Virus record (IMG/VR): IMGVR_UViG_3300044825_001403
Coordinates: 107,665-127,664 of that record
Length of the DNA stretch: 20,000 bases
Source of the DNA: an uncultured virus (IMG/VR IMGVR_UViG_3300044825_001403)
Lineage: Duplodnaviria; Heunggongvirae; Uroviricota; Caudoviricetes
Reading direction: 5' to 3' (one strand)
Below the pieces are notes generated by a model that saw nothing but the letters and a program-made list of their open reading frames with translations, searched no databases and was not told the DNA's origin. A program made the translations under genes and the position numbers. This document shows, piece by piece, positions 7,814 through 13,740 of the stretch. Each line of letters begins with the position of its first letter. Position 1 is the first letter of the stretch.

Positions 7814-8514
7814 AAATTACTTTACAAAATTTCTTTGAACACTTTGATAAGAATAATCCGAATCATGTAAAAGCAGTACAAATGTTTCTACATGCCCTAG
7901 AAAAAGCAGCACCAGAAGAACTAGAAGATACTTCTGGCTGGGTCAAAACATTCAGAACACCTGTTCAAAAACAAGCAACAAATATTTTAGAAAACTTTCC
8001 TTGGTTTCCTCAGACAGACAACTACAGGGATGCACAAAGAACTTGTAATAGTTCTGCCTGTGCTATGTGCTTAGAATATTTAAAGCCAGGTACACTCAAA
8101 GGACCTAAAGGTGATGATGCTTATGTTCAAAAAGTATTTGCTATAGGTGATACCACTGACCACACGGTTCAAACTCGTGTGTTGATGTCTTATGGTATTA
8201 ATTCTGCTTTTAGATATAACTTAACATTTGATGAACTCGATAAGCAACTTGCAGCCAAGCGTCCAGTTGTTATTGGAATCCTTCACAGGGGAACCCTAGC
8301 AGCCCCTACAGGAGGCCATATGGTTGTTGTGATTGGGAAGACGCCCGCAGGCGATTACATCGTTCACGACCCTTATGGCAGCCTTAACGACGGTTATACA
8401 GGACCTGTTACAAATGGCAGGGGTGCGGTGTATAAGCGTAGCGATCTTGTGCGTAGATGGTGTCCTGCAGGAAATGATGGTTGGGGTAGAGTTTTTGATG
8501 CTGTAAAAAAGTAG
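7810..8514 (+). CDS. C39-like (papain-fold) peptidase, putative endolysin; N-terminal part of a frameshift fusion
   Basis: QTDN..RTCNSSACAM (Gln/Cys), GGHMVVVIG (His), VHDPYG (Asp). ATGA-coupled start; ends GTA AAA AAG TAG. Confidence 0.85.
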   Translation: MKITLQNFFEHFDKNNPNHVKAVQMFLHALEKAAPEELEDTSGWVKTFRTPVQKQATNILENFPWFPQTDNYRDAQRTCNSSACAMCLEYLKPGTLKGPKGDDAYVQKVFAIGDTTDHTVQTRVLMSYGINSAFRYNLTFDELDKQLAAKRPVVIGILHRGTLAAPTGGHMVVVIGKTPAGDYIVHDPYGSLNDGYTGPVTNGRGAVYKRSDLVRRWCPAGNDGWGRVFDAVKK

Positions 8515-8546
8515 AAAGTTCTATCCCTCAAGCTGGGATAGAACTT
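8505..8546 (+). promoter_or_regulatory. -1 programmed ribosomal frameshift signal
   Basis: A_AAA_AAG at 8505-8511 in the correct phase, TAG immediately after, hairpin AAGTTCTATCCC-tcaagct-GGGATAGAACTT at 8516-8546. Confidence 0.82.
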
Positions 8547-8987
8547 ATACGTGAGTTTGAAGGATGTCATTTACATGCCTATCCAGACCCAAAAACTGGC
8601 GGACCTCCTATTACAATTGGATGGGGAAGTACTAAAGATTTTAATGGTCAATCATTTAAAATGGGAAGGACAATAACACGAGAATATGCTGATAAACTTT
8701 TAGAATTTGATATTAAAAACAGATTCCTTCCTTATCTAGAAAAAATTCCTTATTGGGGAGAAATGAATGACAATCAACGGGGAGCACTTCTCAGCTTTGC
8801 TTATAATCTCGGTGCTGGCTTTTATGGCGGAGTTGGTTTTAATACTATCTCTCGCAATTTACGTGAGAAAGATTGGTTATCAATCCCAAAAACATTAGAA
8901 TTGTATCGTGATCCTGGCACTAACGTAGAAGCAGGATTACTGAGGAGAAGGAGAAGAGAAGGTTCTTTGTGGTTAGGAATAGGGTAA
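8511..8987 (+). CDS. GH24 phage lysozyme domain, in the -1 frame relative to the peptidase
   Basis: The frame opens after TGA 8496-8498 and reads VESSIPQAGIELIREFEGCHLHAYPDPKTGGPPITIGWGST..ALLSFAYNLG..GLLRRRRREG. The catalytic E/D/T region lies upstream of the first ATG (8661), with no ATG/GTG/TTG before it. Confidence 0.88.
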   Translation, partial: VESSIPQAGIELIREFEGCHLHAYPDPKTGGPPITIGWGSTKDFNGQSFKMGRTITREYADKLLEFDIKNRFLPYLEKIPYWGEMNDNQRGALLSFAYNLGAGFYGGVGFNTISRNLREKDWLSIPKTLELYRDPGTNVEAGLLRRRRREGSLWLGIG

Positions 8988-9311
8988 AGCAATACCTTCG
9001 CTTAACATTTTTTCATTTAATGTGACAGGATCGCCAACAAGATAAAGAGTGCCAAGTATTCTTCCATACTTGTCCTCTTTTGTTGTTTCAATAATCCACT
9101 CTCCTTCACGGGAGAGTTCTTTTTTTAGCCATTCTTTTGCCGATAGACCTTTTTCTTTCTCTGCTAGGTCTTTGGTTCTAGTTTCGGCAGCATTAATATC
9201 TTTTAGTCTTATTCTTTGAGAGAGTGTGATACCAAAACCTAAATCAATATCAACATCAATAGTGTCGCCATCAATGATTCTCTTGATCTTCTTGATCTTG
9301 TATTGATACAT
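8973..9311 (-). CDS. thermonuclease (SNase-like) family nuclease
   Basis: IIDGDTIDV, RIRLKDINAAE and DKYGRILG are staphylococcal-nuclease motifs. Confidence 0.9.
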   Translation of the reverse strand: MYQYKIKKIKRIIDGDTIDVDIDLGFGITLSQRIRLKDINAAETRTKDLAEKEKGLSAKEWLKKELSREGEWIIETTKEDKYGRILGTLYLVGDPVTLNEKMLSEGIALPYS

Positions 9312-10518: not shown

Positions 10519-10815
10519 ATGTCTATTCAAGATTTACCAGATGATGAAAAAGATGCTATTGATATTTTAGCAAAAGCTGGATACCTCAAAGCTTCCAATG
10601 ATAAAATTGAAGTATCTTTAGAATCATCAAATACTTTAAATATTCAACCAAAGGGAAATGTTTTTGGAGCAAAAGTAAAAGTAGAAAATGATGGAAGCAT
10701 CACACCTACTCTCACTTTCGACACAAAAAAATTAAGAGATTCTAAAAGAATAGATGCTAAATCTGCTGTAGATCAAGCACTAGAAGATTATCTGAATGGT
10801 GGAGGCAATGTTTAA
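10519..10815 (+). CDS. hypothetical protein, 98 aa
   Basis: MSIQDLPDDEKDAIDILAKAG... The ORF-track start at 10369 overlaps rlpA and the terminator, so ATG 10519 is preferred. Confidence 0.7.
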   Translation: MSIQDLPDDEKDAIDILAKAGYLKASNDKIEVSLESSNTLNIQPKGNVFGAKVKVENDGSITPTLTFDTKKLRDSKRIDAKSAVDQALEDYLNGGGNV

Positions 10816-11281
10816 ATTATTTGAAGTTAAGGAAGGAAAATTAAAAATTTTACCTTCATTAAGGTTTAAAAATATTGGTGGGTTTATTATAATTTCAATT
10901 GTTGCAATTATAATTGCTAACTTATCAGGAGCATTGAAAGTAAATGAAAGAGATCTTTGGAAATTTTATAATCTTTTAATTAATAGACTTGGTTTACAAC
11001 AGGAACTACCTGACATAAGAGATCATGAAAAACAACTTGACGCTCAAATTGAATTGGAAGTTGATAAAGCAATTCGTGATTACGAACGCTTGACAGGAGA
11101 CGATGGAACTGTTAGAATACCACCACCACGACGTTCCGAGAAACCAGTAGACACCTCGGTGTGCTACACTCCTGAATGTCAAGCACTTGGAGGAGAAATC
11201 CGAATCTGTGCTCCATGGGTTCCAGATTGCCCCTTGACAAACCAAGAACAATCTGGTACAATAAACAAGTTGTCTCAGTAG
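10808..11281 (+). CDS. membrane-anchored protein with Pro/Cys-rich C-terminus
   Basis: TM GGFIIISIVAIIIANL, helical middle, PPP..CYTPECQALGGEIRICAPWVPDCP. The stop lies inside the first bases of the tRNA; start could be 10796 or 10808. Confidence 0.75.
   Translation: MFKLFEVKEGKLKILPSLRFKNIGGFIIISIVAIIIANLSGALKVNERDLWKFYNLLINRLGLQQELPDIRDHEKQLDAQIELEVDKAIRDYERLTGDDGTVRIPPPRRSEKPVDTSVCYTPECQALGGEIRICAPWVPDCPLTNQEQSGTINKLSQ
11234..11262 (+). promoter_or_regulatory. sigma70-type promoter for tRNA genes
   Basis: TTGACA, 17 bp, TGg-TACAAT, 9 nt before the tRNA. Confidence 0.8.
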
Positions 11282-11394
11282 CTCAGTGGAATAGAGCAAC
11301 CGCCTTCGGGAGTTCCGAGTGGACTTAATGGGGAGCATTACCCTATACTCTCATAAGCGGTCGGTCGCTGGTTCAAATCCAGCCTGAGACGCCA
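11272..11394 (+). tRNA. tRNA-Arg (TCT or TCG) with a 46-nt anticodon-loop insertion, CCA encoded
   Basis: Acceptor GTCTCAG/CTGAGAC, D arm GCTC/GAGC with A20, anticodon stem ACCGC/GCGGT enclosing 53 nt instead of 7, T arm GCTGG-TTCAAAT-CCAGC, GCCA end. Confidence 0.85.
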
Positions 11395-11466
11395 GGGCGA
11401 TTAACTCAGCGGTAGAGTAATTCCCTTACAAGGAATGAGTCACTGGTTCGATTCCAGTATCGCCCA
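11395..11466 (+). tRNA. tRNA-Val(TAC)
   Basis: GGGCGAT/ATCGCCC, anticodon arm ATTCC-CTTACAA-GGAAT, TTCGATT loop; abuts the previous CCA with no spacer. Confidence 0.93.
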
Positions 11467-12740: not shown

Positions 12741-12812
12741 GCGAGATTAATTCAGTGGTAGAATGTCAGCCTTCCAAGCTGAACGTCAGGGGTTCAAATC
12801 CCCTATCTCGCT
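12741..12812 (+). tRNA. tRNA-Gly(TCC)
   Basis: GCGAGAT/ATCTCGC, anticodon arm TCAGC-CTTCCAA-GCTGA, TTCAAAT loop, U73. Confidence 0.93.
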
Positions 12813-12858: not shown

Positions 12859-13740
12859 ATGATGATTCGTTCGTTTATTGCCGCTGGTGTTGCTGCCGCT
12901 TCTATGGCTGCTCCTGCTATGGCACAAGTTACCAGTGTTAAGCAACTGAGTGATGTTCAACCTACCCAGTGGTCGTATCAAGCGATTACTAATCTTGTTG
13001 AGCGTTATGGTTGTGTTGCTGGTTATCCCAATGGCACTTTCCAGCCTGGTCAACCTGCTACCCGTGCTGAGCTTGCTGCTCTCACGAATGCTTGCCTCGA
13101 CCGTATCACTGAGTTCTACAGTGCTGCTGATGCCGCTCTGGCTGCTGCTCTCCGTGCTGAGTTCGCTAAAGAAATCGGTGCTACCAATGCCCGTGTGAGT
13201 GCTCTGGAACTCGCTGCTGCCCGTAAGGCACAAGGAGTTGGTAACTACCTTGGTGCTGGTGTACTTCTTAACAAGCAAGGTGTTGCTGGCAACGGTTACA
13301 CCGAGAACCGTACTATCTCTGGTGCTACCATTCAAGGTCGTTATGCTGTGAAGACTTTCAGCAATCAGAATGCTGTTGCTGTTCGTCCTTATGCTAACCT
13401 TGTCGGTACTCCTGCTGGTCAGATCGGTGCTGGTGGTGGTGCTCTCCTCTCTTATGATTGGAGCATTTCCCGTGCTGCTTCTGGTGTGAGCCGTGCTAAC
13501 ATCTACACTGGTGTTGGTTATCAAATTCCTTTCGTGAACGATACTGCTGCTAACTATCAGTCTGCTGTTGGCGAGAAGGGTCAAGTTGTGCTTGCTCTGG
13601 GTATCGAAGGTCGTCTGACCAACTCTCTCGTTGGTTTTGCTGATCTGAAGTTCCCCACCACCAACGCTGCTAATAGCTATGGTGCTACCAATGGGACTTA
13701 TTCTCCTGTGTTCACCACGGGTCTCGGCTTCAAGTTCTGA
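12859..13740 (+). CDS. SLH-domain outer-membrane beta-barrel protein (cyanobacterial porin-type N-terminus)
   Basis: Signal peptide (..APAMA), VTSVKQLSDVQPTQWSYQAITNLVERYGCVAGYPNGTF..TRAE SLH motif as in SomA/SomB porins, amphipathic beta strands, C-terminal GLGFKF. Confidence 0.85.
   Translation: MMIRSFIAAGVAAASMAAPAMAQVTSVKQLSDVQPTQWSYQAITNLVERYGCVAGYPNGTFQPGQPATRAELAALTNACLDRITEFYSAADAALAAALRAEFAKEIGATNARVSALELAAARKAQGVGNYLGAGVLLNKQGVAGNGYTENRTISGATIQGRYAVKTFSNQNAVAVRPYANLVGTPAGQIGAGGGALLSYDWSISRAASGVSRANIYTGVGYQIPFVNDTAANYQSAVGEKGQVVLALGIEGRLTNSLVGFADLKFPTTNAANSYGATNGTYSPVFTTGLGFKF

Follow-up and report, generated by a model that had tools for sequence, protein, structure and literature searches.

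An optional intron-like element with the predicted shape of a miniature tRNA splits the anticodon of cyanophage tRNA genes

Is a 46-nt insert within the anticodon of a phage tRNA gene an intron, and if so, how would it be taken out? The question is raised by a tRNA-Arg gene at positions 11272-11394 of a stretch of 20,000 nucleotides, in the following called the window, which is the final 20 kb of a 127,664-bp IMG/VR virus record (labelled G000). The Rfam tRNA model matches 11272-11391 of this gene with 55.1 bits (gathering threshold 29) and leaves 49 nt in the anticodon loop unaligned. All four arms are intact, the discriminator G73 and the CCA end are encoded (11391-11394), and the anticodon stem ACCGC/GCGGT encloses 53 nt, which confirms what an earlier, sequence-only reading of the window had pointed out. 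That reading also proposed a check by tRNA search programs, with a divided outcome: besides the Rfam match, ARAGORN overlooks the gene by default and finds it when introns are allowed, but then imposes the canonical intron position and reports a wrong anticodon, tcg. Our data demonstrate that the insert is a real, conserved, structured and optional intron-like element of a kind that is absent from Rfam and from the literature searched.

The anticodon depends on which nucleotides are removed, and three registers had been offered: deletion of 11308-11353 gives CT-TCT-AA (Arg, UCU), and deletion of 11310-11355 or 11306-11351 gives the anticodons TCG and CAT, respectively. We judged these registers by intron-less homologues. 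The same tRNA-Arg without an insert occurs in the isolated relatives S-SZBM1 and Sf-CH11 and in four metagenomic relatives (L172, L153, L133 and L151; L-numbers label single loci or contigs). Compared to the four metagenomic relatives, all 36 of 36 positions of the 5′ exon agree, and the changes in the 3′ exon are confined to a compensated T-stem pair and a single T-loop base. The loop CTTCTAA of the intron-less relatives is restored by deletion of 11308-11353 alone; for this reason the anticodon is read as UCU, with the insert between C35 and U36, and the other two registers are dropped. By this comparison, the gene is a tRNA-Arg(UCU) that is split at 35|36 and not at the canonical site 37/38. 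The 5′ exon (11272-11307, plus strand) comprises the 5′ strand of the acceptor stem, the D-arm, the 5′ strand of the anticodon stem and C32 U33 U34 C35. The 3′ exon (11354-11394, plus strand) starts with U36 A37 A38 and continues with the 3′ strand of the anticodon stem, the variable loop, the T-arm, the 3′ strand of the acceptor stem, G73 and CCA. The element between them (11308-11353, plus strand) is a clean 46-nt indel relative to the intron-less alleles, and the models R1, R2 and R3, whose training sets include it, match it with 64.7-68 bits.

A contig from an independent DNA run spans positions 11150-11466 with 0 differences. An independent IMG/VR record (G001, 171 kb, 88% complete) shows 100.0% identity to G000 across 110,131 bp, and by this match the two records are overlapping pieces of one phage. 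The sequence-only reading had named a pseudogene or artefact unique to this assembly as a possible outcome; the independent DNA run, the identity to G001, 16 variants of the insert and their conserved structure (both described below) speak against it. The insert is real DNA, neither an assembly artefact nor a one-off.

To define the family, members were gathered by pattern scans of IMG/VR and JGI metagenomes and by covariance-model searches, and chance matches were removed. This resulted in 16 distinct insert variants of 43-47 nt on about 20 phage or metagenome contigs. Besides the window's own, 13 variants are held by tRNA-Arg(UCU) genes with diverged bodies. One variant lies in the tRNA-Thr(UGU) gene of the window's own phage (G001:137685-137729, loop CTTG|45 nt|TAA), and a divergent one (L334) in tRNA-Ile(UAU) of two complete phage genomes of 224-258 kb (G035 and G036). 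The insertion site 35|36 is common to all 16 variants, and every one of them is surrounded by the loop context CUUN|UAA. The geometry pattern found no match in 596 Gb of bacterial and archaeal genomes, a looser insert pattern gave no new member among the matches listed but noise only, and no member of this family, to which we refer as mini-tRNA introns, was detected in the cultured cyanophages B23 and BUCT-ZZ01, which are positive for the RNA ligase Rnl1. Several candidates were rejected: 54 of the 61 matches of one pattern scan, and likewise L180, represent an uninterrupted tRNA-Arg plus a chance match downstream, L196 and L198 are chance pattern matches and not tRNAs, and the weak model matches L299-L302 (17-18 bits) fall in coding sequence.

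Two loci, L159 and L170, agree fully in their exons and 3′ flank but differ greatly in their inserts, and in L127 and L136 these exons occur with no insert. Since exons are shared while the inserts differ, the element is optional and exchangeable. Presence or absence within identical exons, two very different inserts in identical exons (L159 versus L170) and one target context in three tRNAs are also what might be expected from a neutral or inactivating insertion, be it a tiny mobile DNA such as a hairpin of the miniature inverted-repeat transposable element (MITE), repetitive extragenic palindrome (REP) or IS200/IS605 type, or an assembly artefact in a tRNA pseudogene. We found one copy per tRNA site, and only tRNA sites matched, one in G000 and two in G001. 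Copies outside tRNAs were absent from G000, from G001 and from 72 sources totalling 401 kb, in which only tRNA-Arg sites matched, and a dispersed repeat of the MITE, REP or IS200/IS605 kind was rejected on these grounds. Apart from the single copy per tRNA site with none elsewhere in the 401 kb of related loci and the rest of the phage genome, the intact and conserved tRNA bodies, the agreement of independent assemblies with the DNA run, and covariation of the RNA type with G·U pairs in all three helices of the insert (see below) argue against an insertion of this kind. It is thus extremely unlikely and, together with the artefact, largely refuted.

The proposed structure of the insert consists of three helices, all on the plus strand. 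P1 is formed by GGGAGT (11308-11313) and ACTCTC (11347-11352) and resembles an acceptor stem; five of its six pairs are double-changed among the variants, and 99% of the alignment cells are paired. It is followed by the hairpin P2, TCC-GAGT-GGA (11314-11323, with 11314-11316 pairing with 11321-11323), in which three of three pairs are double-changed and the loop, N-R-G-U, is D-loop-like. A linker, CTTA (11324-11327), which varies between 3 and 5 nt in the family, leads to the T-arm-like hairpin P3, ATGGGG-AGCATTA-CCCTAT (11328-11346, with 11328-11333 pairing with 11341-11346), with three double-changed pairs. The 3′ strand of P1 continues the 3′ strand of P3, so that together they form a 12-nt 3′ strand, and the last base of the intron is a single unpaired, discriminator-like A (11353). 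P1 and P2 had been proposed in the sequence-only reading and are borne out by covariation, for which that reading had suggested collecting homologous inserts. Its second hairpin, TAATG-GGGAG-CATTA, is unsupported: covariation backs ATGGGG/CCCTAT with the loop AGCATTA, and what had been noted as a possible loop-CCC pairing turns out to be the real helix P3.

In a model-fitted alignment of 16 distinct rows (A9), which by its construction leans towards structure, 98.7% of 233 cells were paired, compared to 39.6-50.4% with slid partners. The number of double-changed cells was 60 versus a shuffled mean of 18.8, and the covariation score was 0.703 versus 0.209, a value that was reached by 0 of 500 shuffles. 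An unfitted MAFFT alignment of eight type-A inserts (A5) gave 100% paired cells and 11 of 15 pairs double-changed, again reached by 0 of 500 shuffles. MAFFT misaligned the shorter type-B inserts, and their helices were parsed by script and by model-based alignments instead. An end-anchored parse of 11 variants showed pairing of P1 and P3 in 131 of 132 cells versus 56-65 of 132 with the 3′ strand slid. G·U pairs occur in all three helices. These alignments support conservation of P1, P2 and P3. The predicted minimum free energy fold of the 123-nt precursor (-43.5 kcal/mol, z -2.08) combines the cloverleaf, a 4x4 internal loop and P1/P2/P3; in this model the internal loop corresponds to the split anticodon loop, and both junctions would lie in its unpaired 4-nt strands.

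One pair of P1 differs from its neighbours. The second pair (11309 with 11351) is G·U in 10 of the 16 variants, U·G in one, A·C in one and G-C in four, and the neighbouring pairs covary freely. This wobble may be a recognition or metal-binding feature beside the 5′ junction. An identity element of the G3·U70 type, as used by AlaRS, was considered and dropped, as the conserved wobble sits at pair 2 and not at pair 3.

Such a structure brings to mind a small self-cleaving or self-splicing ribozyme, which would leave 2′,3′-cyclic phosphate and 5′-OH ends to be healed and sealed by the polynucleotide kinase/phosphatase Pnkp and by Rnl1. The size, the three-way junction and the conserved wobble at P1 pair 2 (G·U in 10/16, one A·C) are reminiscent of this class of RNA, and Pnkp is encoded by the window's phage. 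When positions 11250-11420 were compared to 4227 Rfam families at E<=10, the matches were limited to tRNA, Plastid-ycf2 (minus strand) and YrlA, the latter two being weak and unrelated. The few conserved unpaired nucleotides are all explained by analogy to T-loop and D-loop, two cleavage sites would be needed within 46 nt, and the PNKP phosphatase is absent from G035 and G036. We consider a ribozyme highly unlikely. A group I intron was likewise rejected: the 46-nt insert has no catalytic core, group I introns measure about 200 nt or more, and RF00028 gave no match in 11250-11420 at E<=10, while the positive control, G017, was found with 53.3 bits. The control is an observation of its own, since G017 has this group I intron (L312:14341-14535, minus strand) within an ARAGORN-called Gln(ttg) gene with a 199-nt intron, and carries a mini-tRNA intron in tRNA-Arg besides.

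What the insert does resemble is a tRNA. In a tRNA, acceptor stem and T-arm stack into a helix of 12 bp that ends in a 7-nt loop. P1 and P3 add up to 12 levels in all 16 variants, including one A·C and one U·U, the P3 loop always has 7 nt, and the 3′ strand of P3 runs unbroken into that of P1. The length of P2 (2-3 bp) and of the linker (3-5 nt) vary. The P3 loop follows the consensus N-K-C-R-N-N-N with an invariant C3 and GG/CC closing pairs, and in type B, P3 reads GG-UUCAAUU-CC or GG-UUCAAGU-CC, which by its sequence is a textbook T-arm. Loops and boundaries come from a table of 14 variants, supplemented by L318 and by the Ile variant L334 as judged by eye. A G in the P2 loop and a C in the P3 loop are invariant, like G19-C56. 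The second positions of the two loops are A/G in eight variants and G/U in six, without exception in the 14 tabulated and the two read by eye, like G18-Psi55. Positions 1 and 5 of the P3 loop are U/A in six and A/U in six of the 14, with two exceptions, like T54-A58. L194 and L201 uncouple the loop covariation from the split into types A and B. The base following P1 is never G or C in the 14 tabulated variants, being A in 10 of them and U in the other 4; L318 has U, and the Ile variant has AA. A G at the last intron position would pair with C35, and it was never seen there among these 14. When filters were switched off, the intron model's top full-length matches outside the family were genuine tRNAs (tRNA-Ile and tRNA-Ala), matched from end to end with E values of 0.14-6.7, which is a hint only. 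Judged by these features, the insert is best described as a miniature tRNA, with an acceptor/T-arm minihelix (P1 and P3), P2 as a D-loop that would touch the P3 loop, and a discriminator-like base. The sequence-only account had left out this shape.

In the processing of pre-tRNAs, RNase P cuts before nt +1 and RNase Z after the discriminator base, and both leave 3′-OH and 5′-phosphate ends. In 15 of 16 variants, P1 nt 1 is the first nucleotide of the intron and the last one lies 1 nt past P1; L162 allows two registers that differ by one. Given these ends, RNase P and RNase Z would cut exactly at the exon-intron junctions. Our tentatively preferred explanation, which we regard as a serious possibility, is therefore an enzyme-excised intron that would be cut out by host RNase P and RNase Z and closed by phage Rnl1. 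The insert RNA would fold as a miniature tRNA within the anticodon loop of the outer tRNA. Host RNase P would cut the 5′ junction and host RNase Z the 3′ junction, leaving a 3′-OH on the 5′ exon and a 5′-phosphate on the 3′ exon, with the exons held together by the body of the outer tRNA. The resulting nick in the anticodon loop would be a natural substrate of T4-type RNA ligase 1, and sealing by phage Rnl1 would yield a functional tRNA. The released mini-tRNA may be a stable product, possibly with a CCA tail. The RNase Z family model matches the Synechococcus elongatus control genome, which says nothing about the insert as a substrate.

Several observations speak for removal of the insert. 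All 16 variants retain the 4+3 loop nucleotides from which a proper anticodon loop could be rebuilt, and in three identities these nucleotides fit the tRNA body; conservation of the split anticodon extends over tRNA bodies that have diverged. Of the 20 tRNA genes found in G001 (88% complete), none but the interrupted ones are Arg(UCU) or Thr(UGU) genes, and the corresponding codons are common in the phage, with AGA providing 50% of the Arg codons and ACA 35% of the Thr codons at 37% GC. Because the anticodon-loop nucleotides are kept, the genes are the only ones of their kind found in G001 and AGA and ACA are common, we infer splicing itself; which nucleases would cut and which ligase would seal is inferred as well.

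The same evidence bears on the opposite reading, that the 123-nt RNA is active in its unspliced form, as a tRNA body that displays the mini-tRNA and might, for instance, decoy or soak up a host defence directed at tRNAs or a factor that binds them. Spliced RNA was not observed, and the RNA runs do not cover the insert (see below). The same phage group makes anticodon-less tRNA-shaped RNAs with branched inserts (G036, B23, BUCT-ZZ01), which would be in line with such a role. Retention of the 4+3 loop nucleotides in 16/16 variants, fitting the body in three identities, is not readily explained in this way, nor is the interruption of Arg(UCU) and Thr(UGU) genes for which no second copy was found in G001 (88% complete), with AGA as the main Arg codon. 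Close relatives have intron-less alleles with identical exons, as for an optional intron and not for a dedicated decoy gene. An unspliced function is distinctly unlikely. The anticodon-less RNAs form a family separate from the mini-tRNA intron, and all of them were observed in Rnl1-positive cyanophages as over-length matches of the tRNA model (112-120 nt): in G036 (L335:74-193 and 368-479), in B23 (L336:59-168, 'tRNA-Undet') and, unannotated, in BUCT-ZZ01 (ON615601.1; L337:55-168, minus strand, with a second copy at about 111335-111447). In these RNAs an A/T-rich branched insert replaces the anticodon arm, and they have a CTGCAAT-like motif and no obvious anticodon.

RNA-repair genes in the same phage had been guessed at in the sequence-only reading, and profile searches found them. 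G000 encodes a T4-like cyanomyovirus set (among others gp23, gp20, gp18, RegA, UvsW/X/Y, RNR and ferredoxin; Pfam search of 146 of the 147 open reading frames (ORFs), with a 2701-aa ORF outside the scan). Assignment to the cyanophages also fits the tRNA cluster, a wcaG RNA and blastn matches to Synechococcus phages, and the public runs that contain the window sequence are freshwater metagenomes. In G001, a 395-aa Rnl1-type ligase is encoded at L216:6610-7794 (PF09511, 105.1 bits; T4_Rnl1_C weak with 20.5 bits, below the cut-off of 27). It is adjoined by Pnkp, with a kinase (AAA_33, 74.5 bits; L216:7785-8291) and a phosphatase (HAD_PNKP, 96.6 bits; 8230-8694) on two ORFs in different frames that share about 60 nt. 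The two ORFs could result from a frameshift, from an assembly error or from a gene that is split; G008 has the same 158-aa phosphatase frame. A second RNA ligase (PF09414, 97 bits, plus the OB fold PHA02142) forms one cluster with Rnl1 and Pnkp. RtcB was found in none of three records searched. The EndA family (PF01974) was found in none of five intron-bearing phage records, and among 14 control genomes it matched only the four archaea.

T4 Pnkp and Rnl1 reportedly repair host tRNA-Lys that has been cut by PrrC between nt 33 and 34 (attributed to Amitsur et al.), and are said to be able to substitute for the yeast tRNA ligase in splicing (attributed to Schwer et al. 2004 and Wang et al. 2007). 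The window's phage has the same enzyme families, and in both cases the tRNA would be broken in its anticodon loop. In the T4 system the break is made by a host defence nuclease, while here an intron in a tRNA gene of the phage itself would program the break, at 35|36.

The adjoining position of Pnkp and Rnl1 would also suit excision by another endonuclease, with Pnkp and Rnl1 healing and sealing the ends. Candidates are RNase III, acting on the quasi-continuous helix of anticodon stem, internal loop and P1+P3, and an anticodon-loop nuclease of phage or host that measures from the body of the mature tRNA. The common context CUUN|UAA would suit a nuclease that reads the exons, and the 2-nt 3′ tail of the Ile variant corresponds to the overhang typical of RNase III. 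In 15 of 16 variants the tail has 1 nt and not 2 nt, however, and the P2 branch interrupts the helix. Any such nuclease leaves the elbow-like loop covariation, the T-loop-like loop and the fixed 12-bp/7-nt geometry unexplained, and an EndA-type enzyme was found in 0 of 5 records. G035 and G036, which are complete, Rnl1-positive and carry the Ile-type intron, have no PF25109 (HAD_PNKP) phosphatase; this argues against cyclic-phosphate ends and fits ends that need no healing. Removal by another endonuclease is rather unlikely.

Excision by RNase P and RNase Z with sealing by Rnl1 has to be weighed against a number of findings that count against it, some of which concern the ligase. With R3, members of the intron family were detected in three of eight Rnl1-positive and in none of 12 Rnl1-negative records among 20 records that are at least 88% complete (Fisher p about 0.05). 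G035 and G036 appear to be near-duplicates, as judged from identically scoring copies at mirrored positions and not from an alignment, and p rises to about 0.12 if they are counted once. Furthermore, G017, G035 and G036 came from records that had been chosen for Rnl1, and G001, G035 and G036 belong to the training set of R3. The association with the ligase is thus statistically weak. Five of the eight complete Rnl1-positive records have no intron, G008 has Rnl1 and an intron-less tRNA-Arg, and over-length tRNAs were found in 0 of 10 further Rnl1-positive fragments.

Some further observations on the ligase complete this picture. All four large intron-bearing records (G001, G017, G035 and G036) carry Rnl1. 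In five small intron-bearing contigs Rnl1 was not found, which is uninformative at a completeness of 10-24%. Among 42 records chosen by the tRNA-Arg pattern only, Rnl1 was above the cut-off in three (G001, G008 with its intron-less Arg gene, and G062), and it was above the cut-off in none of the 12 intron-less records that are at least 90% complete. Among isolated cyanophages, an Rnl1 of this type is present only in B3, B23 and BUCT-ZZ01, from which the intron is absent. The ligase may be necessary, and it is clearly not sufficient.

To the points that speak against the proposed route belong also the RNA data: two RNA runs (X15 and X17) cover the tRNA halves only, a third (X21) covers nothing, and the insert is uncovered in all three. 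Contigs that run straight across the junction have another anticodon stem (AACTGCCTTC), and because of this difference we attribute them to alleles of other phages that have no intron. In the Ile variant, either the tail is AA or the register is ambiguous; with the AA tail, simple cuts by RNase P and RNase Z would produce a loop of 8 nt unless one of them shifts by one. Bacterial RNase P prefers U at N(-1), and the family has C or G there. The paired outer tRNA flanks the minihelix on both sides and could hinder access of the enzymes. RNase III leaves 3′-OH and 5′-phosphate ends as well. Finally, only about two independent switches, one in the type-B clade and one in L194, underlie the loop covariation, and L201 tells two columns apart.

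The sequence-only reading had named a protein-spliced mini-intron, a small ribozyme and an unspliced decoy as candidates. The first stands as the favoured one, in the form of an enzyme-excised intron in a phage with repair genes, and the other two are disfavoured. The complete proposal, a new tRNA splicing route shared between bacterium and phage, in which a nested mini-tRNA is excised by RNase P and RNase Z, Rnl1 joins the exons and the element, as a selfish passenger, can move between tRNAs with a CUUN|UAA loop, is put forward more cautiously, as a possibility that still falls somewhat short of even chances.

The element can be compared to several known systems. MALAT1 mascRNA, plant mitochondrial t-elements and viral tRNA-like structures are cut out by RNase P and RNase Z. 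As in the present case, a sequence that is not a tRNA mimics acceptor and T-arm, so that the end-processing enzymes define the flanking ends. Those elements mark the ends of mRNAs or lncRNAs, whose flanks are not rejoined; here the mimic lies inside an anticodon, and the flanks need religation. Textbooks distinguish two kinds of tRNA introns: those of group I, which splice themselves and occur in bacteria and organelles, and those with a bulge-helix-bulge (BHB) motif, which are spliced by proteins in archaea and eukaryotes. In the BHB motif, a 4-bp helix separates two bulges of 3 nt, and each bulge contains a splice site. A BHB intron was rejected: in the predicted fold the two junctions lie opposite one another in a symmetric 4x4 internal loop and are not separated by a 4-bp helix, the insert sits at 35|36 versus the canonical 37/38 of most BHB introns, and EndA is lacking in the five records. 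Bacterial and phage group I introns in anticodon loops (cyanobacterial tRNA-Leu(UAA) and tRNA-fMet; reviewed in PMC3984707) likewise interrupt a bacterial-type tRNA and are optional between relatives, but they self-splice by means of a conserved core, which the 46-nt insert does not have. Archaeal and eukaryal tRNA introns (reviewed in PMC4090602) are likewise short, lie in the anticodon loop and are removed by enzymes, the exons being joined by an RNA ligase. EndA/Sen, with RtcB or Trl1 as ligases, work via a cyclic phosphate, while the nucleases proposed here leave 3′-OH and 5′-phosphate.

The nearest published observation concerns the tRNA genes of Lak megaphages, in which 'enigmatic' anticodon-loop introns were noted (Devoto et al. 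2019, PMC6784885; preprint 10.1101/356790), one of which 'may itself encode a tRNA'. The Lak introns share with the window's insert the location in the anticodon loop, presence or absence between related phages, the lack of a known intron class, and an excision point that is set by intron-less copies and is offset from the canonical prediction. A Tyr(GTA) example shows, by eye, a T-arm-like GGTTCGAATCC hairpin within a 7-bp closing helix. The Lak introns differ in length, with 15 predicted introns listed of 23-141 nt and those assignable to the A1 genome of about 79-114 nt versus 43-47 nt here, and in their carriers, which are gut Prevotella megaphages versus T4-like cyanophages. The article's passages on introns propose no structure, covariation, boundary rule, mechanism or link to a ligase. 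Grouping the Lak introns with the window's insert is by description only. Our search of the open literature found no description of tRNA intron removal by RNase P and RNase Z or of the mini-tRNA intron family.

As for the surroundings of the gene, a predicted sigma-70-like promoter (TTGACA-17-TACAAT, TG-extended, 11 of 12 consensus matches) lies at 11234-11262 on the plus strand, 10 nt upstream of the tRNA, in agreement with the promoter that the first inspection had placed there. A tRNA-Val(UAC) gene (11395-11466, plus strand) abuts tRNA-Arg in the same direction, and the Arg-Val pair is kept in relatives. A 161-aa ORF without a Pfam match (10796-11281) overlaps the promoter-like site and the first 10 nt of the tRNA-Arg gene, and its start or its reality is doubtful. 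Elsewhere in the tRNA cluster, a wcaG RNA (RF01761, 12608-12716, 58.6 bits, gathering threshold 42) lies directly upstream of tRNA-Gly(UCC) (12741-12812). In the second tRNA cluster of the phage, an abiF RNA motif (RF03085, L221:1844-1880, corresponding to G001:138028-138064; 55.8 bits, gathering threshold 37) is located between tRNA-Leu(CAA) and tRNA-Leu(UAG). ARAGORN also calls a 'tRNA-Arg(gcg)' of 91-93 nt (G001:139017-139109 and L159:1281-1371), which is long for a class I tRNA and may be a tRNA with a long variable arm or a miscall. Three ORFs are unusual cargo for a cyanomyovirus: a staphylococcal-nuclease-like ORF (window 8976-9311, minus strand; SNase, E 3.7e-12), an SLH-domain protein (window 12859-13737, E 1.9e-11) and a protein of 1332 aa, a short part of which resembles phycobilisome proteins (G000:43599-47597, E 1.1e-9).

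If the proposed route holds true, the mini-tRNA intron would represent a third kind of tRNA intron, the excision of which is handed to RNase P and RNase Z by tRNA mimicry and the joining to a phage ligase. It would provide a natural, programmed substrate for the T4-type Rnl1, which is so far known for repairing the damage caused by anticodon nucleases, and the 'RNA repair' ligases of phages would have a housekeeping role, the splicing of tRNAs that the phage itself encodes. At the same time, the element would offer a compact module of natural origin that releases a small RNA from a tRNA scaffold. The tRNA repertoires of phages are undercounted if standard annotation skips such genes, as ARAGORN does by default, or mislabels them, as it does in intron mode, and the mini-tRNA route may account for the 'enigmatic' tRNA introns of megaphages.

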